Below, one piece after another: positions 2,697-62,492 of a DNA stretch of 64,000 bases; the first letter of the stretch is position 1, and every line of letters begins with the position of its first letter. The notes under the pieces were generated by a model. It searched no databases and was not told the origin of the DNA. It was given only the letters and a program-made list of their open reading frames with translations. The position numbers were made by a program, and so were the translations under genes. Origin of the DNA: Bryobacterales bacterium (GTDB taxonomy: Bacteria > Acidobacteriota > Terriglobia > Bryobacterales > UBA6623); contig JAJEHF010000215.1 of NCBI GenBank assembly GCA_022823865.1, positions 2,924 to 66,923 on the forward strand, in the 5' to 3' direction.

Positions 2697-3971
2697 GTGA
2701 TACTGCCGGGCAGCAAGTCTCTACGGAAGATCGCGGTTGTCGGGCGAGGGACCGCAGGCTCCTTGGCGGCCGCCAGCGTAGCGCGGCTTCACCCGGACAG
2801 CGACCACGAGTTACACCACATCTATGACTCGCGCATCCCGGTCATCGGAGTGGGCGAGGGCAGTTGGCCGAGCTTGGTCGAGCATTTGCAACAACTGACA
2901 GGCCTTCCCCATGAAGCCGTCCAACAGCGCTTGGATGGGACTCGCAAGTACGGTGTTGCATTCGAGGGATGGGGTCGGTGCAACCGACACTTCACCCACT
3001 ACTTCACGCCGCAACAGGTGTCCTACGCCTACCACCTATCCGCCGACTTGATGGCAGAACTGTTGCAGGAAAGCACGCGCGCGCGGCATATCGACGCGAG
3101 GGTACTCAATATCACCAGGGTGGAGGGTGGCGCGCAAGTGGAATTCTAGGGCCTAGCGCCGGAACGCTACGACCTAGTCTTCGACGCCCGCGGGTTTCCC
3201 CGAAAACTCGATCCCGACCAGCACATCGACATTTCTTTCATCCCGACCAATACGTCCGTTATCCGCCGCTGTCCGCCGATCATCAACGAAGAGCAGGACG
3301 GCCCGGTTCTGAAACCCACCTATACCCGGGCGGTGGCGCGTCCACACGGCTGGATATTCGTCATTCCGCTCACAGCACACACTTCCTACGGGTACATCTT
3401 CAACCGCGATGTATCCAGCCTTGGCGAAGTGGAATCGGACTTTGACGCGTTCCTAGAGGCCGACGGCGTCTCAGAATGCGAACAACGCGCCGTGATTCCG
3501 TTTCCCAACTTCGTGCACCGTCAGATCTATGATGGCGCGGTGGCCCGGATCGGAAACGCGGCAGCCTTCATGGAGCCCCTGGAAGCAACGGCGATCGTTT
3601 CAGCCCAGCTACAGATTGGGATGGTTCTCCACTTGCGCCTCAACCGTTCGGTGGAGCACCTTGAGCGCGACTCTCCGTTGGTCAATCGATTTCTGATCAA
3701 TAACATCCTCTGCTACGGCCTGTTCGTCGGTTGGCACTATGCCTGTGGCTCCACGTACGACAGCGAGTTCTGGCGTTACGCTCGCGACCGCGCCTGGACA
3801 AAGTTCCGCAAGGCGGCGGATCCCGAACTGGTGGGCTGCGACGCGCTCCGCAAGTTTGACGAAATGATCGAACTGATCAGCCAGCCGGTTATCGGCAAGG
3901 CGGACTGGAATCGTATGTGCGGGGTCCCCCTCACCAGTTATGCCCAGATATCCCAGGGTCTGGGCCATTAG
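2697..3971 (+). pseudogene. Flavin-dependent (tryptophan-halogenase-family) halogenase interrupted by one in-frame TAG at 3147-3149
   Basis: FAD fold GxGxxG (KIAVVGRGTAGS) and a degenerate WxWxIP halogenase motif (GWIFVIP). ORFs 2697-3149 and 3333-3971 share one frame, and the translation reads sensibly straight across the stop (...GGAQVEF*GLAPERYDLVFDARGF...). Confidence 0.75.
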
Positions 3972-4317
3972 CCACCCATCCTGCTTAGGCAGCGATCTTG
4001 GCATGGAGCCGTGTGTGTTGATTCTTGCACTGCACGGGGCTCGAATGTCCTGGCGCAGGGCGCAACCTGCGGGCGTTGCGGACCCCCTCGAACGTCTTCC
4101 AGCGCGCTCTTCGAGCTTCAGAGTCTTGCAGAAGCTCGCGGCCATGGCGTCGTCGACGGACTGCCAGCCGGCACCGAGACCCGACCAACCCACACACGTG
4201 CGAGAAGCAGCTCGCGAAAGCGCGTCGAGGCGCGCTGCAATCCGCGGGCGCTGTGACAGATGCACCCGGAAAACGGTCGGCGGCGAGTGGGCACAGCACC
4301 TCCGCGTGAGTCCGACA

Positions 4318-5436
4318 TTAGAGGGCGACCGCTCCGGAAAGCACCATGAACACGTAGGCTTTCGCTTTCCGCAGCCGATTTTCCGAGATGACCAGCTTGA
4401 TGTGGTGAATGCCTCGTAGCAGCACATAGCGCCCGGACTTCCCGAAGAGCGTGGTCGGTTTCGAGACCCAGCCGGCAAGCGCCGCTAGCTTCTCCGGAAC
4501 TACATGATCCTCGTGGCTCAGCGCTTCCAGAAACGGGTCCCAATCCGTCAGGCCATCGAGCCAGTACCGTGAGTCTTTCGTAAATCTCTGCTTGACGATA
4601 ACCGTGAGGCCGAGCGTCGGGCCGAGCCCCCCTTCCTGGACGTCGATATTCGCCCCGGTCCTGACAATGCTGACGCGCTCCTGGAAGCGTGCAAGCACTG
4701 ATTCGACGGCCGAGATCTGACCCGGCCAACCCGCGCTCTTGAGATAGGAACACAATTCCTGCTGCGACTTGAAGCCCATGATCGCCAAGCGGACCGCCCG
4801 CGAACGAGACGGGAACACACCGAACGAATCCATGCGCGTGTCTCCCGGCTGTGCCAGGTAAACGCGTTCGACGATCTCCCGCTGGGCGCCATTCGTCTCC
4901 CACCCCAAGCAAGAAGCGAGCGCGTCAACCACCACACCTACATCGTTGACCTGACCGCCGGCTCCGACGATCGGTCGTTCGCCGGGCCGAAGGAACATTC
5001 CCGGCAGCGAACATCCGCCGTCCCGCGCCGAGCCGATGTCATATTCCAACATCAGCTTGCGGCCGACAATGTCACGGAGAGGCGAGTGCTCGGCGTCCAT
5101 TTGGCTGAACAGCCGCACGATCGCCCTTGCGGTCTGATCCGTGTTGTCGGTCCGAGCCCGCTTTCGGAAGAAAGCCGCCGTTCTAGTTCCGCTCGCCAGA
5201 GACGCGCCAAAGTCCGCAGCTGGTTCGCGTGCATGCAGCGGCAGTTCGAAACCGAATGGAAGGGCACCCATCGTGATCGGAAGCGTCCTCGCGCATTCGA
5301 GTATTCGCTCCCACTCCGTATCTCCAATGAGAACGGGCGAGACTCTGTTTCGAAAGTGCCCGAGCAATTCGCCCATGGTGCCGCCCTCTTCCGCGAGACG
5401 GTCTTGGGTGAGTACGACTGCCTCGTCAATGTCCAT
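4318..5436 (-). CDS. Hypothetical protein, last gene of the YcaO operon; possible ABBA-type prenyltransferase-like fold (speculative)
   Basis: 372-aa ORF with a GAGGAG RBS, starting 9 nt after the YcaO stop. I can name no motif. Paired beta-strand-like segments (LGLTVIVKQ, IHHIKLVIS, KAKAYVFMV) give only a weak ABBA flavour. Confidence 0.5.
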   Translation of the reverse strand: MDIDEAVVLTQDRLAEEGGTMGELLGHFRNRVSPVLIGDTEWERILECARTLPITMGALPFGFELPLHAREPAADFGASLASGTRTAAFFRKRARTDNTDQTARAIVRLFSQMDAEHSPLRDIVGRKLMLEYDIGSARDGGCSLPGMFLRPGERPIVGAGGQVNDVGVVVDALASCLGWETNGAQREIVERVYLAQPGDTRMDSFGVFPSRSRAVRLAIMGFKSQQELCSYLKSAGWPGQISAVESVLARFQERVSIVRTGANIDVQEGGLGPTLGLTVIVKQRFTKDSRYWLDGLTDWDPFLEALSHEDHVVPEKLAALAGWVSKPTTLFGKSGRYVLLRGIHHIKLVISENRLRKAKAYVFMVLSGAVAL

Positions 5437-5445
5437 ACAGTCTCC

Positions 5446-7800
5446 TCAGGCAATTACAGGCACCGGATTCAGATCGGCCTCGGCCAAAGGTTGCTCGCGA
5501 CGCCCCATGCTGACAGGCACGTCGTACAGGCGTCCGGGGGCGAATCTTGCCCAAAAATGGCGCATGCCCGGGACGATGACCCGAGCCACTGGCATTCCTA
5601 TGTCCGGCCGGGTCTGATCCAGCACCAAGAATTCCATGCCCCTGGCTTCGACGAGTGCCCGGCAATTCTCCACATCTTCGCGCGTATCGGTCGATTCGAT
5701 CACTGAGTATTCTGAAGCCTTGCGGAGCGGCTCGTCTTCCGCCGGCGCCAGCCAGGGACAATCGGCGAGCCGAACGGTTTTCCACCACCAAAGCGCCAGC
5801 GGATCATCGATCATGGGCCGACCGTCGCGCCTCCCTGGACGGGGCAGCCAGGTAAGGCACTGGTTCAATTCGCAAATCGCGCGCAGGGCCGCTATGTTTG
5901 GGTCGGCGTGGGCACCGGCGCCGTAAATGATGTCCTCCGTTTGGGCGCCCGGTCTGCGCGAGAGCGCAACGAACGTGGGGATGCCGAGATCGGAAGTGAC
6001 GTCGAGCATCCACAGGTCCCGCTCGTAGCCACCGTAATAGTCCGGGGCCGACGCGAGGTACTCGTCGTTGAAGCCGGAAAGATCGACGCCGGGAACTCGC
6101 AGCCGGTTGTACCACCAGATGGCGAACGCATCGCGCTCGGCCAGTTCATAGAAGCCTTGCGCTATGGCTTCTTCCAAGGTATTGCCCGCGGCGCAGCCGT
6201 TGGAATCGGCGATCAGGTCCGCAGGGCCACGCTGTTCGGCCGGCATGCTGTAGAGCATCGACGTCGGAAGGTAACGATGTCGCTGCTGCGTAAGCGACCA
6301 CACAGGTGTCCAATCGAGCTCTGCATCGGGATCGAGACGCTGCGGGACGATGTTATACGGGTGGCCCTTCGCGTTGATGCTCTTCGCGTCGTCAAGCTGA
6401 TCGTCGCTGAACAGCTGAGCGTCGTTTGGATGGATCGCTTCCTCTCCGCTGGCGAAGTCGATAAACCGCTTGCGGACTCGGATCTCGTCCCCACAGCAAG
6501 CGCCCGAATGGCGCTCGACCGCCTCGCAGAGGGCGCTGGCCCTGGATTGCTCTCGTGTGCTGCCCTTGCCCGCGCTCTTACTGCGCAGGCTGCGCCTGAG
6601 CGAACTCAACGTCCGACTTCTCATGCCGAGATTGCTCCCGGCCCAATAGACATGCAGCCAGGAATCGGTCTCAGCGGTCGTCCGCGACAACCAAGTCACG
6701 ACACCGCTGATCGGGCTCACCAAGTGGCGGTATTTCGCCAACGTGACTTCCGGCGCCACGGTGCGCGCCCCGCCGCTGTTTCGGTGCGTCTTGGGGCTCG
6801 CCTTCAGGCTCAGCGCAGCTGGCGGTCGATCCGGCCGGTACAACGCTTCGTCCCCACAGGCCAGACACTGCGGCCGGCGCATTACCGAGTGCCGGGAGCT
6901 TTCGAGTGTGCCGACATTCATCGCGATCGCCTGTTTGTGAATCGGGGCCAGCTCATCCAGCACGAGCCACTTGACGATCTCCCCTGCGATCAGCCCGTAC
7001 AGCGCTTCGAGCACTGCGGGCTGAGCCGCGAACGGCTTGAATGCAGCCTCCTCGCCGGCCAAGTTGCGCAGGAAGTTGTGGACTTCCTGATGGCTGCGCA
7101 GGCGGTAAGCCAAGCAGTCCCAGCACGGTCCTTGTCTATCCGCATGAAATATGGGGCCGAACAGCGCCTCCATGCCACGGGGTCGCACCAGTGTCCACGG
7201 CGCTCCCGTCTCGAGGCGGCACCGATTCACCACTGCCAGGTGTGACGCGAGATAGTCGTCGCAGACAAGGACGGTGAGCGTGGGATCGACAGTCCCCACG
7301 CTGGCGCCGCTATCTTCCAACTGCCGGATTAGCCGGCCGTCGTCACCCTCAACCTTGATGCGCGATTCCGCCAGTCGCTGCTCGACCCAGCGCGGCGATG
7401 CACCAAGCGACGACCAGTAGGCCGCCCGGCATCGGTCCATGCCATGATCGGCAGAGACGACATAGCCTTTGGCCGAGAGCGCAACAATCGCCGCACGAAC
7501 ATCGGCTGCGGCATGTGTGCCCTCAAGGGCCGCGACAGTCTCTTGCTGGGGGTGCCGGCCATCGAGCAACGGCAGCAGACTGCGATACAGCTTGCCGTGC
7601 AGCAAGGTATTGAACGACTCGGAAACCAGCAGCATTTGCTGTTCGCCGATATGGCGAAATCGCAGGTGCGGGGCCAGCGCGGGAAGCTCGACGAGGCCCT
7701 GGTCCAACGGAGTCGTTCTGGTCAGAATCCCATGCCTGGGATTGATGTCCGTCTGCGCTGGCATCTGGGATTTGCGCGCCGGGTCAGCCGACAAGCTCAC
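5446..7800 (-). CDS. Fused E1-like (cyclodehydratase C-type) / YcaO (SagD-type) azoline-forming cyclodehydratase
   Basis: 784 aa. The N-terminal half carries CxxC pairs (GPCWDCLAY, RRPQCLACG). The C-terminal half is YcaO-like (...GKGSTREQSRASALCEAVERHSG..., ...NGCAAGNTLEEAIAQGFYELAERDAF...) with a Pro-containing C-terminal tail (NPVPV). Size and architecture resemble PatD/TruD-type fusions. The GTG start overlaps the upstream stop (GTGA at 7797-7800). Confidence 0.85.
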   Translation of the reverse strand: MSLSADPARKSQMPAQTDINPRHGILTRTTPLDQGLVELPALAPHLRFRHIGEQQMLLVSESFNTLLHGKLYRSLLPLLDGRHPQQETVAALEGTHAAADVRAAIVALSAKGYVVSADHGMDRCRAAYWSSLGASPRWVEQRLAESRIKVEGDDGRLIRQLEDSGASVGTVDPTLTVLVCDDYLASHLAVVNRCRLETGAPWTLVRPRGMEALFGPIFHADRQGPCWDCLAYRLRSHQEVHNFLRNLAGEEAAFKPFAAQPAVLEALYGLIAGEIVKWLVLDELAPIHKQAIAMNVGTLESSRHSVMRRPQCLACGDEALYRPDRPPAALSLKASPKTHRNSGGARTVAPEVTLAKYRHLVSPISGVVTWLSRTTAETDSWLHVYWAGSNLGMRSRTLSSLRRSLRSKSAGKGSTREQSRASALCEAVERHSGACCGDEIRVRKRFIDFASGEEAIHPNDAQLFSDDQLDDAKSINAKGHPYNIVPQRLDPDAELDWTPVWSLTQQRHRYLPTSMLYSMPAEQRGPADLIADSNGCAAGNTLEEAIAQGFYELAERDAFAIWWYNRLRVPGVDLSGFNDEYLASAPDYYGGYERDLWMLDVTSDLGIPTFVALSRRPGAQTEDIIYGAGAHADPNIAALRAICELNQCLTWLPRPGRRDGRPMIDDPLALWWWKTVRLADCPWLAPAEDEPLRKASEYSVIESTDTREDVENCRALVEARGMEFLVLDQTRPDIGMPVARVIVPGMRHFWARFAPGRLYDVPVSMGRREQPLAEADLNPVPVIA

Positions 7801-10193
7801 ACCCGCGAGAGAAGCGTATCGATCTGCTCCCCGGCGCGGGCCGCGGTTCCGGCGACCGCCGAATTCAACGCATCAAGATCCTCGTGCCCGCAAGCGTTCG
7901 CAACCAGAGACTTGACCTTAGGGCCTGCCGCGGTCACGTCGAACCCTTCCTCCCCAATGAGGCGCGTGATGCCCTGCAAATCTCGCCAAGCGTTGGCGGC
8001 TTGCGACAGCGGCTCGGCGCCGGCGGCACTGAACACCGCTGCGGCAGTCGGAGCCGGATCGTCAAGGCCCGCTGCGAAACCTGTTAACTGCAGGAACCGC
8101 GCGGCCCTCTCGACATCATCCAGCCCGCCGCGCACACGAGCGTAGCTAGACACGCCAGGCTCGGCCCGACCTTCCGGCGCCTCGCGCAACTGGGCGATCA
8201 GGGACTCGTTCGCGGCGTACTCGGCAAGGGCTTCGCTCCGCGCTCGGTCGAAGTGCAGGCCGATTTCAGAACCGCCGGACTCGAACACGCAACGTGCCCG
8301 CGTAAGCGCGGGGATTCCTCCGGGAGCGACATTCCTGCAATGCTCCGCCAGTTCCGAGAGCGGCAGCACGAGAAGGGAACGCGAGCCGGGCCGAACCGGC
8401 GAGAACAACAGGCTGTCCTCTGCCAAGTCGGTCAGGGCCTTTCGAAAACGCCGGCGCAGGCGCTCGTGGTCGCCAGAGCGCCAGCCATCATGGACGAACA
8501 GCGTCTCGACTGCCACGCCGGGATAGACTTCCCGGCTGGCGAGGTCGCCCAAGAATATGGCGGCGACTCCACCCGCGCGCTGCGGCCCAACCCGTTCGAG
8601 AACATCCGCGACGACCGCGCCAAGCACGGTCGCAACCGACGCTTCCGCAAGATTGGACAGCGCAATCTTCGCCTCAGCAGGCGACAGGTTGCCGCGCACG
8701 ACATGCATGCCGATCTGAAATGCCTTGTCGTTCGACCAGTTTCGGACGATTTCAGCCGATTCCTTCGCATCAGCTGTCGGCAATTCGGCAATCATGTCCT
8801 TCATTTCCTGAACGCCCATTTCGCGCGTCCAGTAGAGTCTCGTCAGCCCACGCCGCGCAATCGCTTCGGATTGCTGATCCGGCCCGAATCCGCTCGGCAG
8901 GTCCAGATCCGTGAATTCGCGGTCCTGCAAGTTGTCGAGCAGCTCCGAGTTGCGCTCGATCGACTTGGCGAGCCGCGGGGCGGTGCCGAAAATCTCGACA
9001 ATCGCCTCGAAGGCATCAGGTCGCGCTGCGGAGGCCGGGCTGTCGTAGGCGCTCCAGTCCTCGATTTCTGGATAGAAGTGCATTCGCCATTGATCTACCA
9101 GCGGGTCCATCCTTGCGAACCAGCGCTTCGGCCGCAGCACGATGTTCATCATGTCGGCGTAGGTTCCCGGCAGCTCCGGCGATTCGTCCGGGCCACGAGC
9201 TTGGAGGAGCGGATAGTGGCGGGATGCCATCGCATGATGATCTGCATGCCGCTGCATGTTGAAGAACATCCAGTTGCTGAACTTCCAATCGGCACTCCAC
9301 GAGTGGCGTGGCAGCACCTTTTCCCAACGACCGTTCGGCAGACGGACCCGTCGCAAACCGTAGTGTTGAAAATAGTTGCTGATCTTCATCGAAAAGACGC
9401 AGCTCAATCCGAGAGAGGCAAAGACCAGAACGGCCCAGATCCCGCTCATCCAGAAGACTAGCCCGTACCAGAACGCAACAGCCGCTGCGTAGCGCCAAAA
9501 CGGATTGCTGTAGTGCCACATAGATCGCTGGCGCCGCGCAAGGCGTTCGCGGGCAACCTCCCAAGAATTGGTGAGGTTGCTTACAACCTCCTTGGGGAAA
9601 TACCTCCAGAAACTTTCGCCCTTTGGAGCGGATCCCACGTCATGCGGCGTGCCAACCTTCGCGTGGTGGATATAGACATGCTCCGTGGCATATTGCGGAT
9701 AGGAAGCACAAGCAAGGAGAAACTCCCCGAGCCGCCTTTCCCAAGCAAAACGCCGGTGAATGAGTTCGTGACCGACTACAAACACAGCCTGTGCTTCCAT
9801 GGTCAAGATGATTGCTAGGAGCACGTCTTCCCAGATTGAGAACGGATTCGCGACAAGGATCTGCCACATGCCGAAGATGAGTGTCGGCGGCCACAGAAAC
9901 GCCCACCCCCAGACGGGCAGATTGTGCCAGAACAAGTGGCGCTCTGACGTCTTCTCCGGGTCCATATTGCGGCCGTCGAGGCCCAGCGCCCGGTCAAGCG
10001 GCCCCGCGACGCTCATGAAGAGGAATGCCGGCAACAACCACCAGCCGCCATAGGCTGCGGCGAGAAGAATCAATGGAAAGATCCCTAGTGGCAGATAGTG
10101 CGGGATGGCGTTACGGATCGTAGGTTCGATTTCCTGGGTGGAGGCAGCCCTGTTCGAGCCCAAGCCACCACCTATAGCTGTAGCTTGCGGCAT
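7797..10193 (-). CDS. AlkB-like membrane di-iron hydroxylase fused to a degenerate GlnE-like nucleotidyltransferase domain
   Basis: His boxes HELIHR, EHVYIHH, NYFQHYGL and QRHADHH in the N-terminal ~400 aa. The C-terminal ~400 aa align by eye with the GlnE in this window, but GKLGGxELNxxSDVDL is replaced by GDLASREVYPGVAVET. GGIRDIEFLVQCLQ corresponds to GGLDDVERAARFLQ. Confidence 0.8.
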   Translation of the reverse strand: MPQATAIGGGLGSNRAASTQEIEPTIRNAIPHYLPLGIFPLILLAAAYGGWWLLPAFLFMSVAGPLDRALGLDGRNMDPEKTSERHLFWHNLPVWGWAFLWPPTLIFGMWQILVANPFSIWEDVLLAIILTMEAQAVFVVGHELIHRRFAWERRLGEFLLACASYPQYATEHVYIHHAKVGTPHDVGSAPKGESFWRYFPKEVVSNLTNSWEVARERLARRQRSMWHYSNPFWRYAAAVAFWYGLVFWMSGIWAVLVFASLGLSCVFSMKISNYFQHYGLRRVRLPNGRWEKVLPRHSWSADWKFSNWMFFNMQRHADHHAMASRHYPLLQARGPDESPELPGTYADMMNIVLRPKRWFARMDPLVDQWRMHFYPEIEDWSAYDSPASAARPDAFEAIVEIFGTAPRLAKSIERNSELLDNLQDREFTDLDLPSGFGPDQQSEAIARRGLTRLYWTREMGVQEMKDMIAELPTADAKESAEIVRNWSNDKAFQIGMHVVRGNLSPAEAKIALSNLAEASVATVLGAVVADVLERVGPQRAGGVAAIFLGDLASREVYPGVAVETLFVHDGWRSGDHERLRRRFRKALTDLAEDSLLFSPVRPGSRSLLVLPLSELAEHCRNVAPGGIPALTRARCVFESGGSEIGLHFDRARSEALAEYAANESLIAQLREAPEGRAEPGVSSYARVRGGLDDVERAARFLQLTGFAAGLDDPAPTAAAVFSAAGAEPLSQAANAWRDLQGITRLIGEEGFDVTAAGPKVKSLVANACGHEDLDALNSAVAGTAARAGEQIDTLLSRV

Positions 10194-10270: not shown

Positions 10271-11569
10271 TCAATCCCTTATGGTTTCGACAAGACGTTC
10301 CAGAGCTTCGATACAAAATGCCGAGGTCACTGCTTCCGATCCGTGCCCGATCCTCCCCACCGCGCCCCACTTCAAGAATTGGTCACCAAACGCGAGAAGC
10401 TCCGGCCAGCTACCGTCCTCGCGTTGCGAATCTATGAACGCCTCGACCTGGTGCTTCGCATCGACGCTCTCAAGGCTTCCGACGCTGTAAAGCGCCGATG
10501 CCGCCTGCGCGGCCTGAAGGACGTTGCCGAATCCTCCGTTGTTGTCGCACAGACCTCGGATGCGGTCCGCAAGTATCGGGCGGAGTTGATCGAGAGCAGG
10601 CTGCACACGAACCACGGCGCGAGCGATCGCATAGTAGATCGCGACCGTATCCGGATACCACTTGGACGAGCCGTCGAGGCGGTCTTCGGCGATCAAGTCT
10701 TCCAACCATCGTTGGGCATCTTTCGTTTCCGGATGGTCGCCTAAGTAGGCAATCACATTCGCATTGACAACTGGGTCAGATTCGAGGCGAAATCTTGACA
10801 CAACGTTGGGCTCATCGTCTTCTAGGACCCAAGTTGAGAAACAGCCGTTTTCGTCGCGATTCTTCAATATTCTTGGAACGTTTCGTCCGAGAAGAATCCA
10901 AGGATGATTCCCGCCGACCAATGAACACAGCGCAGTGCTGTCAAGATCCTGGGGAAGATGGCTGTAATAGCGCCAAAAGCCGGGATATTCAATGGTGTCG
11001 GCAAGGTACCTCTTGGTAGCGGTGCACATGGCCTTGGCCCGCGCTTCATTGCAACTCTCCAAGGCAAGCACGCACAGGGCTGAAACGAAAGGAGGCCTTT
11101 CGAAATGCCGTGGAATATCCGGATCAGCCGTGTTGAAACGGATGCACTGCCAAGCCCCGTTCTTGTCGATCGTGGATTCCAAGAATGCGAGACCGCGGCG
11201 GATGCTGTCTCTACCCGCTCTCGCAAGCGTCCCAGAGACGGCAGCGATGGTTCGGGCTCCCGTCGCTCCCCGGGCGGGCCGGGCCGGCGGCGCGGGGTCG
11301 TAGAGTGTCTTGCGAAGAAAATCGAGCGATGCTGCTCCGGCTTTCGCCGCGCTCCGTTCGGCGTCACTGAGTTTCCTACGTGGCGGTAGCACCACGTGCG
11401 TCGAGGAATAGGTCTCTTCGTGTACGTGAATCTCGTGGCCTTCGGGCAGCGTCACGCCGAATTCCTTCTCGAATGCTTCGCTAGGTTTCTCGAGAAGAAG
11501 TTCGCGAAAGTCATCGTCCTCGCCAGCTCTTGATACCAGAAAATCTTCTGCGCCGATAGGTTCCTTCAT
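10271..11569 (-). CDS. NHLP (nitrile-hydratase-like) leader domain fused to an alpha/alpha-toroid prenyltransferase/terpene-cyclase-like repeat domain
   Basis: The N-terminus DDDFRELLLEKPSEAFEKEFGVTLPEGHEIHVHEETYSSTHVVLPP...KLSDAERSAAKAGAA matches the NHLP leader pattern, including a Gly-Ala/Gly-Gly-type cleavage region. The remaining ~350 aa carry spaced repeats (KNGAWQ, YPGFWRYY, ENGCFSTW, DGSSKWY, NNGGFGN, EDGSWPE) typical of prenyltransferase-beta/squalene-cyclase repeats. Confidence 0.75.
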   Translation of the reverse strand: MKEPIGAEDFLVSRAGEDDDFRELLLEKPSEAFEKEFGVTLPEGHEIHVHEETYSSTHVVLPPRRKLSDAERSAAKAGAASLDFLRKTLYDPAPPARPARGATGARTIAAVSGTLARAGRDSIRRGLAFLESTIDKNGAWQCIRFNTADPDIPRHFERPPFVSALCVLALESCNEARAKAMCTATKRYLADTIEYPGFWRYYSHLPQDLDSTALCSLVGGNHPWILLGRNVPRILKNRDENGCFSTWVLEDDEPNVVSRFRLESDPVVNANVIAYLGDHPETKDAQRWLEDLIAEDRLDGSSKWYPDTVAIYYAIARAVVRVQPALDQLRPILADRIRGLCDNNGGFGNVLQAAQAASALYSVGSLESVDAKHQVEAFIDSQREDGSWPELLAFGDQFLKWGAVGRIGHGSEAVTSAFCIEALERLVETIRD

Positions 11570-11803: not shown

Positions 11804-14746
11804 TCAGGCGATCTGCCTCTTGACCAGTTCCTTGAACACCCCGTCGACCTCCATCAGGTCGCTGAACGAGCCGCTTTGCACCACTCTTCCGGCCTGCAAC
11901 ACATAGATGTGATCAGCCTGTTCCAGAGTGGACAGGCGGTGCGCGATCACGATCCGGGTGGAGGTGAGGGCAGTGAGGTTCCGCATCACTTTGGCCTGGC
12001 TCTCGTTGTCGAGCCAATTGGTTGCCTCGTCGAACAGCATGATTCGCGGGCTACCGATCACCGAGCGGGCGATCGTCACGCGCTGACTCTCGCCGCCTGA
12101 CAGGACAGCCCCGCTGGTGCCGACCATAGTCATCATGCCCATCGGCATGCTCTTGATTTCGCTTTCAACCTCGGCGATCTGGACCGCCTTCCATACTTCC
12201 TCGTTCGCCACTTCATCGCGGTGACCGACCAGATTGTCCCAGAGATCCAGAGGATGCAGTCCGACCGATTGAGGCACGGCGCCAATCTTCCTGCGCACCT
12301 GTCTCAGGTTCAGATGTCTCAAGTCGCGGCCGTCGTAATACACCGCGCCGGCGGTCGGCCGGTCGATTCCAAGCGCAAGCCGGAACAGCGTGCTCTTGCC
12401 AGCACCAGACTCACCGGCAATCGCGACGAACTCGCCCGGGCGGGCGCGAATCGTGACATCGTCGAGAATCAGCGGGCCATCCGGATCGTAGCGGAAGGAA
12501 ATACGGTCGAACAGGAGTTCGCCACCCAGATACTCGACTGGCTGTCCTTCGACATCGCTCTCAGGAACTGCAGCGAGCAGCGGACGCATCTGATCGAAGG
12601 CCGGCAGCATGGCGGCAACGGTGCCGAAGGACTCGCCGAGCCGCGCGATGGCGGACTGGAAAGCGATGAAGACGGTGTAAACGACGAGAAAATCGCCGAC
12701 CGGGACGTTCCCCGTGCCGATCTCGACCGTTGCAAAAAGCAATACCCCGCCAGCAACAAAGGGGAGCGCGGCACCGAATGCCCGCAAATGTCCCTCCAGT
12801 GCGCCCAGTTCAAATTCCGCGCGTTTCTGCTCGCGATAATCCCGTGCCCAGATAGCGAAAGCCGACCCTTCCGCGTTTTCCACGCGCAGCTTGCCGATAC
12901 CCCCCACGATCTGGAAGAGCCGACCGGCGACACGACGCGCTGCGCCGAGCATTCGCGCATACGGTGGAATCTGGCGCAGCCCAAGGACGACGGTGATTAG
13001 CAGAGAAGCCAAGCTGAAGACGAGTGCGACAGTTCCGAGGGTGGCATCGTAGAAGAAGATGAGGCCGAGAGCCGGAAGCAGGAAGATGATCGACAGCAGG
13101 CTATCGGCGACGACTCCGTGCAAGCCATCGCGAAGATTCTGGAAGGTCATTCCCGACATCGCCAGATCTCCGGATGGATGTCGGTGCAGAATGCTTGGCG
13201 GAAGACGCATGAGGCGGTCCCAGAAGGCAGCCTCGACCCGAGACGCCGAGCGCCCCTCAAGCCGCATCATCGCTGTGCTTTGAAAGACGTGCAGCAGTGC
13301 CCCGAGCAGGCCAAACCCCGCCAATGCCACCGCCATGGCATATAGCGCCCCAGAGGTTTCACCGGCCATCACTTGGTTCGCGACGAATCCAAGCGCGAGT
13401 GCCGGCAGCAGCTTGATCAGACCGCCGGGAAGCCCGGCAATCACCAGCCGCGCCAATTCTGCGGCCGATCCCCGCAGGGCGATCCTCAGAAGGTCTGCCG
13501 GCTTCACAGTCCCCGACGGCAACGGGCGATAGAACACCCAAGCCTTCTCCCCAAGCGCACCGGCACGGCGGGCCGTGATGCGGACGCGGCGCTTGCTGAC
13601 CGGGTCGATTTCCCGGTAGCTTCCGAACATTCCCGGAAGTAGCGCTACGGGATGGCCGTCCTCGGCGCGGAATGCCAGCATCGCATTGCTGTCGCCGCGC
13701 CACCATTTCCGCTCGGATGTGAATCGCACGCGCCGGGCGCGTACCCCGGACGCATCGAGAACGTCAACGAGGCCGACTGGGGAGTCAGAAGGGCTCGGGC
13801 GCACTGGAATCTTGAAATCGATTCCTTCATGGCGACCAATGACTTGGAGGGCGTCCGCCAGAGCCGTGTCCTCGACGTTGGCGTGCCGGTCGATCGGCAG
13901 GTCATAAATGTTGAACAGCCTCTGCCGCGCGGCTTTTTCCGCCATGCGGCGGCTCGTTGTCCGCGCTCGTTCGAGATTCGCATCATCGACCACTGCCAGT
14001 CGGCGGTTAAGGCGTTCCAAATAGAAAGCAATCGAGTGAAAGGATGCGAGCGCCGGCAGCAGAGTGCCTTGCTGTGCCAGCGTTTCACTTGACTTGCCTG
14101 AGATCGTCACTTCGTCGAACAATGTCAGCCAGCTTGTTCGCGTCAGCGGTATCAAGGCTTCGTGCGGGCCGCTCGCACCGGCATGTTCTGCTGGGTCAGC
14201 GATGCCCATGAATAGGCTCGCGCCGAGCGGCGGCTCGGACACCCATACCACGCCACGCCGCACGGATAGCGTGCAAGGGGACAAGGTCTGAGTCAGGCCG
14301 GGCTCGGCCAGCGCAGTCGGCCTCGGAGGCCGGCTCACGAAGCGCGCAAGTGAGTCAGCAATAGCGGTCAGCCAAGTATCGGTCTGTTCTGCAAGCTCTG
14401 CCGGAGAAACGTCGGACAGGGAGGATGCCGGCAGACGTTTGAGAAGGGTTCCTGGCGATCCCTTGGCAATCAGGCTGAGGGTCGTGTCTTCGTCATTGCC
14501 TCGCTCGTCCGGTGCGACACCCGGCAGCAACCAGCCCGACTCGAGGCTCAGCAAATGCTGCGGGGTCGCCTGCTCCACCCCGTCCTTGAGTTCGATCAGG
14601 AAAAGGTTGACGGCACCCCGTTCGATGAACCAGACGCTATCCAGGTCGTCGAGTTTCAGCGGCAGGTTGCCGGCGCAGGGCACGGAAGCACCCGAGCGAG
14701 CCGCGAGCTCGGCAAGTGATGTGTACCCCGGACTTGTTTCCCGCAT
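11804..14746 (-). CDS. NHLP/NHLM-type bacteriocin export ABC protein ('ABC2'): cNMP-binding-like domain + non-catalytic C39-like domain + TMD + NBD
   Basis: 980 aa. N-terminal beta-roll-like segment (DSVWFIERGAVNLFLIE), a C39-like region without a catalytic Cys, Walker A GESGAGKST, signature LSGGESQR and Walker B IMLFDEATNWLD. The start overlaps the upstream stop (TGATG at 14744-14748). Confidence 0.8.
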   Translation of the reverse strand: MRETSPGYTSLAELAARSGASVPCAGNLPLKLDDLDSVWFIERGAVNLFLIELKDGVEQATPQHLLSLESGWLLPGVAPDERGNDEDTTLSLIAKGSPGTLLKRLPASSLSDVSPAELAEQTDTWLTAIADSLARFVSRPPRPTALAEPGLTQTLSPCTLSVRRGVVWVSEPPLGASLFMGIADPAEHAGASGPHEALIPLTRTSWLTLFDEVTISGKSSETLAQQGTLLPALASFHSIAFYLERLNRRLAVVDDANLERARTTSRRMAEKAARQRLFNIYDLPIDRHANVEDTALADALQVIGRHEGIDFKIPVRPSPSDSPVGLVDVLDASGVRARRVRFTSERKWWRGDSNAMLAFRAEDGHPVALLPGMFGSYREIDPVSKRRVRITARRAGALGEKAWVFYRPLPSGTVKPADLLRIALRGSAAELARLVIAGLPGGLIKLLPALALGFVANQVMAGETSGALYAMAVALAGFGLLGALLHVFQSTAMMRLEGRSASRVEAAFWDRLMRLPPSILHRHPSGDLAMSGMTFQNLRDGLHGVVADSLLSIIFLLPALGLIFFYDATLGTVALVFSLASLLITVVLGLRQIPPYARMLGAARRVAGRLFQIVGGIGKLRVENAEGSAFAIWARDYREQKRAEFELGALEGHLRAFGAALPFVAGGVLLFATVEIGTGNVPVGDFLVVYTVFIAFQSAIARLGESFGTVAAMLPAFDQMRPLLAAVPESDVEGQPVEYLGGELLFDRISFRYDPDGPLILDDVTIRARPGEFVAIAGESGAGKSTLFRLALGIDRPTAGAVYYDGRDLRHLNLRQVRRKIGAVPQSVGLHPLDLWDNLVGHRDEVANEEVWKAVQIAEVESEIKSMPMGMMTMVGTSGAVLSGGESQRVTIARSVIGSPRIMLFDEATNWLDNESQAKVMRNLTALTSTRIVIAHRLSTLEQADHIYVLQAGRVVQSGSFSDLMEVDGVFKELVKRQIA

Positions 14747-16956
14747 CAGCCTGCCCTGACCAGCTTGTAGTACGTGCCGTCCCGATCCGCAATCAATTCC
14801 TCGTGCGTGCCGCGCTGCACTTCGACGCCCTTGTCCAGCACGATGATCTCGTCGCAGTCCCGCACGGTGCTTAGCCGGTGGGCCACGATCAGGCAGGTAA
14901 CACCCCGGCGCCGCAGGGCGTCGTCGACATCTTCCTCTGTCGCGGCATCCAGAGCGCTGGTTGCCTCGTCCAGGATCAGCACCGTCGGGTTGCCCACCAG
15001 AGCGCGGGCGATTTCGAGTCGCTGCCGCTGCCCGCCGCTGAAATTCACGCCGCCCTCCTCGACGACGGTCGAATATCCGTTCGGCCTGACCAGGATTTCG
15101 TCATGGATGCGCGCATCTCGTGTCGCGGCGAAGATGGCTTCGTCCGGAACCGCTGGATTCCACAAGGTGATGTTGTCGCGCAGGGACGCAGAGAAGAGTA
15201 CGCATTCCTGATCCACCATGGAAACGGACTGCCGCAGCACTCCCTCGGGAATCTCGTCACGCAAATGGCCATCAAACAGAATCTCACCCGACCAAGGCCG
15301 ATAGACGCCCGCAGCCAGACGCGCCAAGGTCGACTTGCCGGATCCGCTGGGGCCGACCACGGCAACTCGCTGCCCTGGCTTGATCACGAGGCTGAAGTCC
15401 TTCAGCAAAGCTGGCCGGCTCTTATTGAAGCCGAAGGTGACGTCTCGCAGTTCGAGCTAGCCCGCAAGCTGGAGTCGGCCGTTGAATGTCGAAATTGACC
15501 CCGATTCGGTACCCCGGCGGCTGAAGACGGGGTCTTCGGCGGTCTTGGAGATGTCGTCGAGTCGTTGCAAATCGGTCGCAAGCTCCTGGCGCTTGTCGGC
15601 GAACTCTAGGAAGCGCCCGATAGGAGCCAAGAACATCTCAGCCAAGATATAGAAGCCAGCCAGCGTCCCTAGGGTCATTTCTCCGGTCATCACCAGCCCC
15701 CCTCCGACACCAAGGACCGCCGCGCTGCGGAGTCCGGCGACCAGGCCCGGAAGTGCGGTGTTGACGGAGCCCAGTTCGGAATAGAGCTGGCGCGCCTGCA
15801 GCTCGCGGGCCTGCTGACCGCTCCAGCGCGAGAAAAATCGGTCATCGGCCCCCGTCATGCGCAGGTTGTCCGCATGACTGAGCATCTGCATGCCGACGCC
15901 AATCAGCAACCCCTGCTCGCGCCTCATCGCCTGGCTTCGAACAGCCCGGGCCGCGTTGAGAAAGTGGGCCAGCATCCCGTGCAGCACGCCCAGGAGCACC
16001 ACAATCAGCGCGAGCAGGACATCGTATGTCAACATCGCGATGAGCAACACCGCACTCATCGCTATGTCGACAATGAGCACGATGAACTCGTCCGTCAGCT
16101 TCTTCGCGATCCGGTCCATCGAGGAAACCCGATCGGTCAAATCGCCCACCAGCCTGTGTTGAAAAAACTCCACCGGAAATCGCAGAAGCCGCGACAAGCC
16201 CCGACTTCGACCGATCACCGAAATCCGGATTGACAGCCGCTTCAGGAACCGGTGCTTGAGCAATGACAGGATGTATGTCAAGACGCCGCCGCCAATCAAG
16301 GCCACCACCAATCTGTCCCAAGCTCCATGATTTTCCAGAACGTCGTCCACAAATATGCTGAGAGAGATAGGAACAATGAGGGCTAACAGAGTCAACATAA
16401 ATCCGCAAGCAATTACCCCAGAAAGTATACTCCATGATCCGGCAAATAAAGCTCGCAATTTCCCGAGAAATCCGGACTGCTCTCCTCCTAGAGTAAAGTT
16501 GGGTCCGCGCTTGAACCGCAACGCAATTCCACTATATCCTTGGTTGAACTCCTCAGTGGAAATCTTGCGTCTCCCTGTAGACGGATCATTGAGATAGAAA
16601 CTGTTGGCATCGAAGCCTTCAAGAACAACGAAATGGCTGAACTGCCAAAACAAGATCAGTGGCAACTCCAGCCTCCTTAGTTGACCGGCACGTATGCTGA
16701 GTCCATTGCATTCGAGGCCGTAGTGTCTGGAAGCGCGCACGATGCTCGCCGCACTGCTTCCGTCTCGGCTCACCTCGCATTTCTCGCGCAACTCGGTGAG
16801 CGGCACCCACCGCCCGAAGTAGCCAAGCACACTGCCCAAACAGGCGGCGCCACACTCTGATGCGTGCATCTGCAACAGTACTGGCGTGGCTATCTTTCGT
16901 TTTATTGGGTCTGGTTCGGCGGTATTTCTAGAATTTCTAGAAGCGTGGATTGGCAT
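14746..16956 (-). pseudogene. C39 peptidase-containing ABC exporter (PCAT, 'ABC1') interrupted by one in-frame TAG at 15457-15459
   Basis: C39 catalytic region QMHASECGAACLGSVLGYFG plus FSHFVVLEG, a TMD, and an NBD ([29 protein letters not shown]). The two ORFs share a frame, and reading through the stop gives ...[36 protein letters not shown]..., a normal TMD-NBD junction. The start is coupled to the HlyD-like stop (TAAGATG at 16954-16960). Confidence 0.85.
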
Positions 16957-16957
16957 C

Positions 16958-17509
16958 TTACGATTGCCTCGGATCAAAGATTGCAGCCGGGGGATCTTCA
17001 GAAATTTCAATGATAATCTTGCATTCGGTTCCTGCAAGCGGGGACAGATCGTGGCTTGAGTCGATCGCGATAGTTACGCGATGCACGGACACTGGTGCCG
17101 CTGCCTCAAACGCAGCCACTTCCGCAGGTGAGGGCAGCGCCGAAATCGTCCTAATCTCCCCGTCTAGTGTGTCCGCTTCTCCATCGGCGATGTCTAACTC
17201 TATGACTGCTGGCAACCCGGCTCTAAAATGCGGCGCTGCCTCGTTCTCAACCCAAATGAGCGCTTGCACAGTCTGGTTGGCCCCAAGCAAGTCCTCGCCA
17301 GACTCGATCAGTACGCCGTCTACCGCAAGGCTACGGCCTACATTGCCGAAGAAGAGCCATGCCGCAAGGATGAACAGCAACAGCGCGATGACCGCGACAA
17401 GCTGACGCTCACGCGGTGTGGAGACTGTCAATAGCCGGTCGAGTTGTTCACGCTCCTCCTTGGCTTCCGCAACAGTACTGTGAAATGAATCGAATGGATT
17501 ATTGAACAC
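16958..17509 (-). CDS. Short HlyD-family (NHLM-type) membrane-fusion-like protein lacking the coiled-coil hairpin
   Basis: NPFDSFHS...EEREQLDRLLTVSTPRERQLVAVIALLLFILAAWLFFG is the typical HlyD N-terminus plus TM. It is followed directly by a ~130-aa beta-rich domain. The start is placed at the in-frame GTG at 17509, after a GGGAGG ~12 nt upstream. The longer ORF to 17788 would overlap the divergent gene and the predicted promoter, but the start remains uncertain. Confidence 0.6.
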   Translation of the reverse strand: MFNNPFDSFHSTVAEAKEEREQLDRLLTVSTPRERQLVAVIALLLFILAAWLFFGNVGRSLAVDGVLIESGEDLLGANQTVQALIWVENEAAPHFRAGLPAVIELDIADGEADTLDGEIRTISALPSPAEVAAFEAAAPVSVHRVTIAIDSSHDLSPLAGTECKIIIEISEDPPAAIFDPRQS

Positions 17510-61874: not shown

Positions 61875-62084
61875 TCACTCCCAGAGCCTCACGGCCTCGC
61901 TCCGCCTGCTCTCGGCGGGCAGCTCCGGCAGCTCGATGAGCACTCCGGCCGGCAGCAGCGGGCCCCTGTCCGCCAGCCCGGGATTGGCCTCCAGCACGAC
62001 CTCGGCCGCGCCGGGCCGCGGGCCGTAATGCCGGCGGCTGATGGCGTCGACCATGTCGCCCTCGCTGGTCAGGTACGCGGCCAT
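61875..62084 (-). CDS. Phage tail protein X (P2 gpX-like)
   Basis: 69 aa. ...GDMVDAISRRHYG......VLEANPGLA......LPAGVLIELPE is the gpX/LysM-like pattern. Confidence 0.8.
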   Translation of the reverse strand: MAAYLTSEGDMVDAISRRHYGPRPGAAEVVLEANPGLADRGPLLPAGVLIELPELPAESRRSEAVRLWE

Positions 62085-62087
62085 TGC

Positions 62088-62492
62088 CTAGCCCTCCCCG
62101 TCCTCTCCGTAGAACGCGAGCGAGATCTGGAATTCGACCTTTCGGGGCGCCCCGCCGGCCAGGTGCGCGCTGCCGGTATCGCGGATCCGCGTGATCACCC
62201 ACAGGCCGAGCACCTTCCCGTCGCCGCCCACCAGGCGCAGCGGCTCGCCCTTGGCGGCCTCCGCGCGCATGGCGTCCAGCTGGCCCAGCCCCCCGCGCCA
62301 GGCCGGGTAGATCGTCCCGCGCAAATCGATCGTGTCGTCCCCCGGCCCCAGCCACTGCCGCGCCGGCGTCCGGCCGACGCGGTCCTGCCGGTGCCAGCGG
62401 TATTCCTGCGCGCGAGAAAGCTCGCCGTAGGCCGCCGTCGAGACCGAGAAGGCGTATGCTCCGAGCTTCAGCAGCTGCGCGTCATCCGGCAT
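62088..62492 (-). CDS. Phage tail protein U (P2 gpU-like)
   Basis: 134 aa. ...LGAYAFSVSTAAYGELSRAQEYRWHRQDRVGR.PA.QWLGPGDDTIDL.G.IYP... is the typical gpU pattern. Confidence 0.85.
   Translation of the reverse strand: MPDDAQLLKLGAYAFSVSTAAYGELSRAQEYRWHRQDRVGRTPARQWLGPGDDTIDLRGTIYPAWRGGLGQLDAMRAEAAKGEPLRLVGGDGKVLGLWVITRIRDTGSAHLAGGAPRKVEFQISLAFYGEDGEG

Follow-up and report, generated by a model that had tools for sequence, protein, structure and literature searches.

A recognition element and a catalytic-type domain occur on one polypeptide chain in the laboratory versions of LynD or LctM with a leader in cis, and in borosin precursors such as OphMA, in which enzyme and core are parts of one protein. 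Unlike these, the protein that we describe here is natural and widespread, carries its leader N-terminal to an accessory domain, has no core, and is accompanied by a precursor that is the product of a separate gene. It is encoded by a 432-amino-acid open reading frame (ORF) with an ATG start (positions 10271-11569, minus strand) in a 64,000-nucleotide stretch of DNA from a Bryobacterales bacterium (contig JAJEHF010000215.1; the whole stretch is hereafter the window), and it consists of an NHLP-type leader domain, a tether and a class II terpene-cyclase-like alpha/alpha barrel. The gene belongs to the srp clusters, which were reportedly published in 2021 by Nguyen et al. These clusters, which make peptides synthesised by ribosomes and modified after translation (RiPPs) of the proteusin type, are spread across phyla and are among the widest and most highly transcribed biosynthetic clusters of sponge microbiomes. 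The peptide precursor SrpE receives three thiazolines from the YcaO enzyme SrpC and a bromine on its C-terminal Trp from SrpI (PMC10286304, PMC10858898). Only three of the approximately nine conserved srp genes have assigned functions in the accessible literature, and srpA, B, D, F, G or H are named in no paper that we found in the searchable literature. We propose, with a rough probability of one half, that the fusion protein is a leader-tethered tailoring enzyme of the class II terpene-cyclase type, working with a partner that resembles ABBA prenyltransferases on srp-type peptides.

Like the precursors of the SrpE/NHLP (proteusin) family, the fusion protein has a leader fold derived from the alpha subunit of nitrile hydratase (NHase) over its N-terminal ~78 residues, a site with Gly at the corresponding alignment position, and a gene cluster that includes the NHLM ABC1, ABC2 and HlyD genes and a YcaO gene of the thiazole/oxazole-modified microcin (TOMM) type. 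The leader occupies residues 1-78 (11336-11569, minus strand) and ends at an invariant Gly78, taken as position -1. The NCBIfam model leader_NHLP (TIGR03793) matches residues 9-71 over its positions 7-70 of 77 (E=5.8e-13), with a score of 48.5 bits for a curated cut-off of 50.9; matches were also obtained with Pfam NHase_alpha (6.8e-4), the nitrile hydratase alpha chain in the PDB (3e-4) and, for residues 11-79, the NHLP nuclear magnetic resonance structure 8TB1 (3.6e-3). These profile matches bear out the preliminary description of the ORF, made from the sequence alone, which had recognised an NHLP leader in it. In the AlphaFold2 (AF2) model, the helices in residues 7-37 have predicted local distance difference test (pLDDT) values of 88-93, values above 90 are reached over residues ~112-432, and values below 50 are found at residues 56-65, 75-85 and 102-108, which correspond to the flexible tether and the site region. 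The identity between the fused leader and the leader of SrpE is only 32-34%.

The end of the fused leader, ...AERSAAKAG/AAS (the slash marks the site), falls in the same alignment columns as the cleavage site AG/LCCCW of SrpE, so that the Gly-Ala type site seen earlier at this position is real as an alignment feature. The residues around it were counted in 198 distinct fusion sequences and in 59 SrpE precursors. Position -1 is Gly in all 198 fusions and in the precursors, and position -2 is Thr or Ala in the fusions and Ala in the precursors. Position -4 is Ala in 196 of the 198 fusions (Ala75 in the window) and Ile or Val in the precursors; position -7 is Arg without exception in the fusions (Arg72, nucleotides 11354-11356) and Leu or Met in the precursors; position -8 is Glu in 195 fusions and Gln in the precursors; and position -12 is Leu or Phe in the fusions and Ile, Met or Leu in the precursors. 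Hence the hydrophobic -4/-7/-12 pattern of a Gly-Gly-type site is kept at -12 and broken at -4 and -7 in the fusions. The Leu to Arg contrast at -7 is also found when the approximately 50%-identical fusions L087, L089 and P0123 are compared with the precursors of four clusters. These two positions matter for the known partners of such leaders. The C39 domain LahT150 is strongly impaired in cleaving leaders in which Lys or Asp replaces Leu-7, and does not cleave when a charged residue stands at -4 (PMC6363468); the leucines of the L(X)4L motif are the main contact of the leader with SrpI (PMC12537861). The same leucines also extend the sheet of the RiPP recognition element (RRE) of YcaO enzymes, and the motif is destroyed (L...R) in every fusion.

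What follows the site also differs from a precursor. After the site, NHLP precursors carry a short hypervariable core in which Cys, Ser and Thr abound (Haft 2010), whereas the fusion protein, with Arg-7 and Ala-4 in place of Leu and Ile, continues directly after the site with a conserved 19-residue segment (residues 79-97, AASLDFLRKTLYDPAPP; 11279-11335, minus strand) and then with a 314-residue folded, enzyme-like domain. This segment is the best conserved part of the N-terminal region (mean column conservation of 0.875 among the 198 sequences); Ser81 and Leu85 are invariant in it, and it is kept in the 50%-identical fusions. Residues 98-118 (11216-11278, minus strand) form a variable, low-confidence linker, with a conservation of 0.58. 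Judged by its residues, the fused leader keeps the folded NHLP nucleus and has lost the tail features of a substrate leader, and the combination of the invariant Arg-7 with the segment AASLEFLRKTLHDPAPP would imply a specific contact. Functionally, the fusion protein falls outside the NHLP precursor family: a hypervariable core is absent, the recognition residues are changed and the score lies just under the cut-off. The precursor closest to the fused leader (43%) comes from an L084-type cluster that already holds a barrel gene, which suggests that the fused leader may have been born by the joining of a precursor gene to a neighbouring barrel gene.

The closest described relatives of the barrel are AsDMS, the drimenol synthase of Aquimarina spongiae, and the type II meroterpenoid cyclase MstE, which are class II cyclases with a single beta domain (PMC12232559). 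Residues 119-432 (10274-11215, minus strand), modelled with pLDDT >90, are predicted by Foldseek and a PDB profile search to form an (alpha/alpha)6 barrel with the monodomain class II terpene-cyclase fold. With the barrel model as the query, Foldseek returned the AsDMS cyclase domain (E=3e-12, 323 aligned columns), MstE (4e-9), several ~340-residue bacterial cyclases, a drimenyl-diphosphate synthase and a squalene-hopene cyclase (SHC); the matches to AsDMS, MstE, 6ij1, 8pak/8paj, SsDMS and SHC range from E=3e-12 to 1e-6. The sequence searches agree with this result, Pfam SQHop_cyclase_C matching at 1e-5 and SQHop_cyclase only weakly, and a QxxDGSW motif is present at residues 382-388. The general acid of AsDMS is D323, in a 'DXDT' motif (PMC12232559). 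Using a hidden Markov model (HMM) profile of 117 family members, we found that Asp210 (QDLD210STA) aligns with the Asp of the AsDMS DDLDTT motif; the aligned residue is Asp in wild-type AsDMS entries (DDLDTTS) and Asn in mutant entries (DDLNTTS), and D210 is invariant in the 117 sequences. The motif in the window, D208-L-D210-S-T (10934-10948, minus strand), is a variant DxD(S/T)T general-acid motif: the stand-alone relatives of the barrel mostly read D[LVM]DDTA, and the motif of the fusion clade is DLDST, with Ser in place of the last Asp of DxDD, a type of variant that is seen in active drimane synthases. On the strength of these models, the barrel has the fold and the putative general acid of a class II terpene cyclase.

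The barrel thus shares with MstE and AsDMS the single alpha/alpha-barrel fold and the general-acid Asp in DxD(D/T/S)T at the aligned position, in spite of a sequence identity of 17-20%. Unlike them, it is found in RiPP and not in terpenoid clusters, bears an N-terminal RiPP leader and has the family-specific invariant residues Cys215 and Cys419. Other identities were considered and rejected. The preliminary description had spoken of repeats of the prenyltransferase-beta/squalene-cyclase type, of which the cyclase part stands and the prenyltransferase-beta part falls, the Foldseek matches to RabGGTase-beta being poor (E~4e-4, template modelling (TM) score ~0.27, root-mean-square deviation ~15 Å). 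No Foldseek match to LanC was obtained, nor any match of Pfam Prenyltrans or LANC_like on the fusion protein, and the Foldseek ranking together with the TM-scores rules out prenyltransferase-beta, LanC and the thioester domain (TED) of alpha-2-macroglobulin as identities of the barrel. As a side observation, Cys215 (10925-10927) and Cys419 (10313-10315) are invariant in the barrel family and His222 (10904-10906) is nearly so, and these residues are absent from the aligned columns of drimenol synthase; they may form a metal site or serve another function specific to the family.

The fusion architecture is widespread. A search of 5.8 billion proteins gave 1053 homologue hits, and the best 120 of them have 427-466 residues (most have 432-433), essentially full coverage and 72-93% identity. 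When one genome per species was scanned, relatives were found in at least 155 genomes of 8 or more phyla, from which 80 loci were kept; the gene-content counts given below cover 84 loci. The kept loci (67-91% identity) are almost all from metagenome-assembled genomes of sponge symbionts, and their hosts comprise Bryobacterales, Terriglobia, Vicinamibacteria, Alpha-, Gamma- and Deltaproteobacteria, Nitrospirales, Nitrospinota, Ca. Palauibacter, Longimicrobiales, Binatia, Ca. Poriferihabitaceae and Thermodesulfobacteriota. The window lies closest (91%) to the Bryobacterales chromosome L001/L004. Over the 198 distinct sequences the mean column conservation is 0.80 for residues 1-60, 0.82 for residues 61-78 and 0.86 for the barrel. 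With 198 distinct sequences sharing this architecture and a leader as conserved as the barrel, a chance origin is excluded, and a leader under a constraint equal to that of the enzyme-like domain is therefore no mis-annotated start, assembly artefact or decaying relic. A later true start and a mis-joined ORF were also ruled out, because a Shine-Dalgarno-like sequence (GAGGAAG) lies 5' of the ATG, no in-frame ATG occurs before codon 130, and the leader is conserved as protein in the 198 sequences from >150 genomes; the leader thus lies, as first read, within the true ORF.

The position of the gene tells what the protein is not. The conserved srp set comprises the genes for a mini-HlyD protein (183 residues), ABC1 (with C39 peptidase), ABC2, the fusion protein, an FA_desaturase::GlnE-like protein, YcaO, a 372-residue protein, SrpE and a halogenase, and the fusion gene lies directly after ABC2 in most of the 84 loci. 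Mining all ORFs, we found a conventional 83-residue NHLP precursor, SrpE (ending in ...ITEEQLEAISAG/LCCCW), within a few kb of the fusion gene in 59 of the 84 loci; the other counts are 72 for YcaO, 48 for the halogenase, 73 for the 372-residue protein, 62 for the FA_desaturase::GlnE-like protein and 53 for the mini-HlyD. For the family, this finding contradicts the view of the folded domain as a replacement for a short core, which would make the fusion protein the precursor. A separate precursor, named in the preliminary description among the things that would refute it, has been shown experimentally, at the level of the family, to be the substrate of SrpC and SrpI, although its gene is absent from the window itself. 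The fusion protein is a conserved accessory protein of the srp proteusin clusters of sponge symbionts, and not their precursor. It is probably the 'SrpA' of the published cluster, since the gene order at L019/L060 (fusion, desaturase, YcaO, 372-residue protein, SrpE, then mini-HlyD, ABC1 and ABC2, then halogenase) fits the published letters C, E and I. Contig CBDBZU010000004.1 carries two complete srp clusters in one genome (L029 and L030), each with a fusion gene and srpE.

The 372-residue protein (g372; 4318-5436, minus strand), which gave no match by sequence to Pfam, NCBIfam or the PDB, provides the likely partner of the barrel. Its AF2 model (pLDDT 83.7, predicted TM-score 0.84) shows five beta-beta-alpha-alpha units, and the top 50 Foldseek matches are all ABBA aromatic prenyltransferases (E=2e-5 to 1e-3, TM 0.4-0.5), including Trp prenyltransferases and the peptide prenyltransferase LimF. 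Furthermore, in P0218, P0254 and P0221 the g372 family HMM finds its counterpart within the N-terminal ~340 residues (E=4e-21 to 6e-16), and the C-terminal half of each of these proteins is a barrel, so that g372 and the barrel occur as natural fusions with each other. P0179 has a weak Trp_DMAT-like domain where the g372 half sits, followed by a barrel; a pairwise BLASTP of g372 with P0179 was not significant, and only the family HMM brought out the link, with P0218, P0254 and P0221. Neither g372 nor the g372::barrel fusions have a leader. This arrangement parallels that of MstE, the substrate of which is first made by an aromatic prenyltransferase, and meroterpenoid pathways, including that of MstE, as a rule use a prenyltransferase first and a class II cyclase next.

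The pair is not confined to srp clusters. An exhaustive search with the barrel only gave 763 relatives, which are mostly leaderless proteins of 300-340 residues with 30-45% identity, some larger ones having the barrel at the C-terminus; elsewhere, barrel relatives are fused to prenyltransferase-like, terpene-synthase-like or P450 domains. A signal-like N-terminus was seen in 6-7 of 263 barrel-family proteins, about 97% of which are signal-less. Six leaderless barrels were looked up in their contigs: five adjoin an ATP-binding cassette (ABC) transporter that contains a C39 peptidase (PCAT), with an ABC2-type transporter also in view for four of these five, four are accompanied by a g372 homologue and four have a short NHase_alpha-like ORF nearby. 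Three of these short ORFs are full precursors with unrelated cores, and end in ...ESASG/AYY (with two P450s), ...EMAAGG/SSWNCSCRTC and ...QMAGG/GSCDMFGYSLDWGSY. The fourth, an 88-residue NHLP-like ORF (L091, 738-1004), which lies by PCAT, ABC2 and barrel genes, ends in ...LVLPPRIEDQS and has no Gly-Gly site or core. The recurrence of the prenyltransferase-like/barrel pair in NHLP/PCAT clusters suggests, by analogy with meroterpenoid biosynthesis, that the pair may act on a ribosomal peptide.

From these lines of evidence, we favour a cytoplasmic pair of enzymes that would tailor a ribosomal peptide. In this scheme, g372 would attach an isoprenoid to the peptide, and the barrel would protonate and cyclise this isoprenoid, or at least bind it. 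The covalent leader domain would stay on, and would not be removed for export; it would serve as a docking module that holds the enzyme at the machinery that recognises leaders, the candidates being the winged-helix/RRE region of YcaO, the transporter and the leader of the precursor itself. A leader-mimic enzyme that remains in the cytoplasm is favoured because the recognition residues are altered, signals are rare in the barrel family and the partner is leaderless; accordingly, among the three readings offered in the preliminary description, that of a leader mimic tethering a terpenoid-type protein fits the data best. We also put forward, more tentatively, that srp and the wider NHLP/PCAT clusters might make peptide-terpenoid hybrids, in which g372 prenylates the modified core and the barrel cyclises the peptide-bound isoprenoid by class II chemistry, with the cis leader of the srp protein re-tuned (Arg-7, Ala-4) to dock uncleaved. 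We know of no RiPP for which class II cyclisation of a peptide-bound isoprenoid has been reported.

Several observations weigh against the tethered cytoplasmic enzyme. The invariant Gly at -1, the small residue (Thr or Ala) at -2 and the flexibility of the site are as expected for a cleavable site of the double-glycine type, and the fusion gene follows ABC2 in most loci. The ~50%-identical fusion of L089 (10001-21308) is found with an amine oxidase, an HlyD-like protein, PCAT, ABC2, an MMPL/sterol-sensing transporter and a methyltransferase, and no YcaO, short precursor or 372-residue homologue was found within 10 kb of it. For a mimic that had only to be 'uncleavable', an invariant Arg at -7 is more than necessary. 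In L087 the core variant LCCCS offers no aromatic acceptor, and heterologous work on srp, as described in the papers that cite it, gives only thiazolines and bromination. The L001/L004 cluster, which has no srpE, keeps intact YcaO, halogenase and PCAT genes, and the AF2 model of the fusion protein carries no information on contacts between the leader and a partner. Concerning L087, its srp-like precursor (6523-6804) ends in AAG/LCCCS, with no Trp, and the cluster has no halogenase; it encodes a B12-radical-SAM enzyme, an amine oxidase and a methyltransferase, and keeps the fusion and prenyltransferase-like genes.

Part of this evidence would suit an exported enzyme. The NHLP leader would then be a genuine signal for secretion and processing, and the C39-ABC1/ABC2/mini-HlyD system would cut behind Gly78 and deliver the ~350-residue barrel to the outside of the cytoplasm, to act there on the exported peptide or to bind it. 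As in the double-glycine cargo of ProcA/LahT and CtA/PCAT1, a leader runs to a small-Gly site and the gene lies beside a C39 ABC transporter; besides the residues and flexibility of the site, the conserved order of ABC2 and fusion gene, and L089 with its transporter genes and no short precursor, this reading gains from the presence of the C39 catalytic residues and from the few barrel homologues with Sec or lipoprotein signals. As class II cyclases work without a cofactor, activity outside the cytoplasm is in principle feasible. However, the fusion protein lacks the hydrophobic residues at -7 and -4 that LahT150 requires, Arg-7 and Ala-4 replacing the residues needed by C39 domains, and its passenger, unlike those of ProcA/LahT and CtA/PCAT1, is a stably folded domain of 350 residues. 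About 97% of the barrel family have no signal, and the leaderless prenyltransferase-like partner is fused to the barrel in proteins that look cytoplasmic. To our knowledge, a stable 350-residue alpha/alpha barrel is far above the size of the PCAT substrates described, and our literature search found no relevant paper on large PCAT cargo. Another point against export is that the Nitrospirales loci keep the fusion gene after the loss of the adjacent transporter genes, although such genes are absent from only 4 of the 52 loci with full flanks, too few to discriminate on export. Overall we regard export, which the preliminary description had listed as PCAT cargo, as unlikely: it is weakened by the residues at -7 and -4 and retains in its favour the invariant Gly, the flexible site and the linkage to ABC2. 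In the Nitrospirales, the loci without adjacent transporter genes are L012, L013 and L036, and in L013 a 74-residue remnant of ABC2 (9796-10017) directly upstream of the fusion gene indicates a deletion.

The barrel could also be a non-catalytic binder of a hydrophobic (lipidated or brominated) product or of an isoprenoid, acting as a carrier, a chaperone or a means of self-protection, with the leader delivering it to the transporter or the modification complex. Catalysis by the barrel is so far a prediction, the barrel accompanies the export module regardless of core chemistry, and the fusion clade has Ser for the third Asp of DxDD; but the general-acid Asp is invariant, variants of the DxD(S/T)T type are active in drimenyl-diphosphate and drimenol synthases, and the fusions to prenyltransferase-like, terpene-synthase-like and P450 domains point to a role in an enzymatic pathway, which makes a mere binder improbable. 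Still more doubtful, and in our view very improbable, is a protein-sized substrate, delivered by its leader to YcaO, the halogenase or the desaturase-like enzyme and modified in residues 79-97 or in the barrel. It is true that clusters devoid of srpE (those of the window, L001/L004, L007 and L014) still encode YcaO and the halogenase, that Ser81 is invariant, and that SrpI can brominate leader-fused proteins ending in Trp (PMC10286304). Yet every fusion has a destroyed L(X)4L motif, which otherwise serves SrpI and the RRE domains of YcaO, a C-terminal Trp is absent and the leader has no Cys nearby, conservation and not hypervariability marks the residues that follow the site, and most clusters have a bona fide precursor in SrpE. 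The earlier idea of a protein substrate for YcaO has gained no positive support.

The other srp genes of the window are arranged around the fusion gene, with ABC2, the C39-bearing ABC1 and the HlyD-like gene upstream, and the FA_desaturase-type, YcaO and 372-residue genes downstream. The NHLM_micro_ABC2 gene (11804-14746, minus strand; TIGR03797, E=6e-199), which encodes no peptidase, lies directly upstream of the fusion gene; its N-terminal extension of ~290 residues (approximately 11804-12680) is not covered by the TIGR03797 model. Further upstream lie NHLM_micro_ABC1 (14746-16956, minus strand), with C39 peptidase, transmembrane and nucleotide-binding domains and a catalytic Cys/His signature, and the 183-residue mini-HlyD-like gene (16958-17509, minus strand), which matches only positions 6-56 of the 421 of TIGR03794 (E=3.6e-4) and is 78% identical to a 183-residue gene of L001. 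The length of ~183 residues is kept in the 53 loci with this gene, the versions of other NHLP clusters having 244-301 residues, and, unlike a full membrane-fusion protein, the mini-HlyD may fall short of bridging the periplasm. The upstream C39 exporter, ABC2 partner and HlyD-like protein noticed at the outset are thus present as genes, with the reservations that the HlyD is a mini version and that the ABC1 frame is interrupted. On the other side lie the gene for the 798-residue fusion of an AlkB-like FA_desaturase with a GlnE-like nucleotidyltransferase (7797-10193, minus strand), a conserved srp component, of which the preliminary description had caught the AlkB-like half, and the gene for the SrpC-type YcaO cyclodehydratase (5446-7800, minus strand), with winged-helix and TOMM leader-binding (TIGR03882) regions. 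A genuine GlnE is encoded elsewhere in the window (39462-42389). The Trp-halogenase gene, for an SrpI-type brominase (2763-3971, plus strand), is 95% identical to the L001 halogenase, which has PF04820.

This copy of the cluster shows possible signs of damage. The ABC1 of the window aligns end to end with the intact 736-residue L001 protein (89% identical), and a Gln codon (CAG) of L001 has its counterpart there in an in-frame TAG (15457-15459), in the stretch that separates the transmembrane part from the ATPase part; this TAG is a nonsense mutation or else an error of sequencing. The halogenase gene has an in-frame TAG as well (3147-3149, codon 129), where L001 has Glu (GAG). Recoding of TAG was ruled out as the cause of these stops, because TAG also ends the halogenase gene and a 1057-residue ORF. 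The usual slot of srpE, between g372 and the halogenase (3972-4317), contains no precursor gene and aligns only with the closest relative, L001, and tblastn of the window with the fused leader and SrpE revealed no second leader-bearing gene or degraded srpE (best E=0.27-0.6). Among Acidobacteriota, srpE is also missing from L005, L007 and L014 and is present in L015 and L031. As srpE is missing and both the transporter and the halogenase have a TAG, the srp copy of the window may be partly inactive, or its sequence may contain errors; the fusion gene keeps all the residues that are invariant in the family. The rest of the window is ordinary chromosome, with a GC content of 0.74 in 62001-64000 and ~0.62 elsewhere.

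The preliminary description had supposed that nothing of this kind was described. This was too broad, the srp cluster family being already known, but for the protein it agrees with our search: the leader-cyclase architecture and its function, the pairing with an ABBA-prenyltransferase-like protein and the re-tuned leader were not found in the searchable literature, nor did we find there a paper that combines RiPPs with class II terpene cyclases. What the fusion protein adds to the understanding of the srp family is that two further srp genes look like a prenyltransferase/class II cyclase pair, which predicts that the mature product bears a (cyclised) isoprenoid and would explain why heterologous work limited to the precursor, YcaO and the brominase may miss the true product. 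If confirmed, a tailoring enzyme that bears a leader by nature would represent a recruitment mode new to RiPP biosynthesis and offer a finished design to engineers, and its re-tuned cis leader would be the natural counterpart of the engineered leader-enzyme fusions. Should export prove true instead, a bacteriocin-type PCAT would be able to carry a passenger of the size of an enzyme. Together, the leader-tagged cyclase and its partner hint at an undescribed lipid (terpenoid) chemistry on the srp peptides of sponge symbionts.

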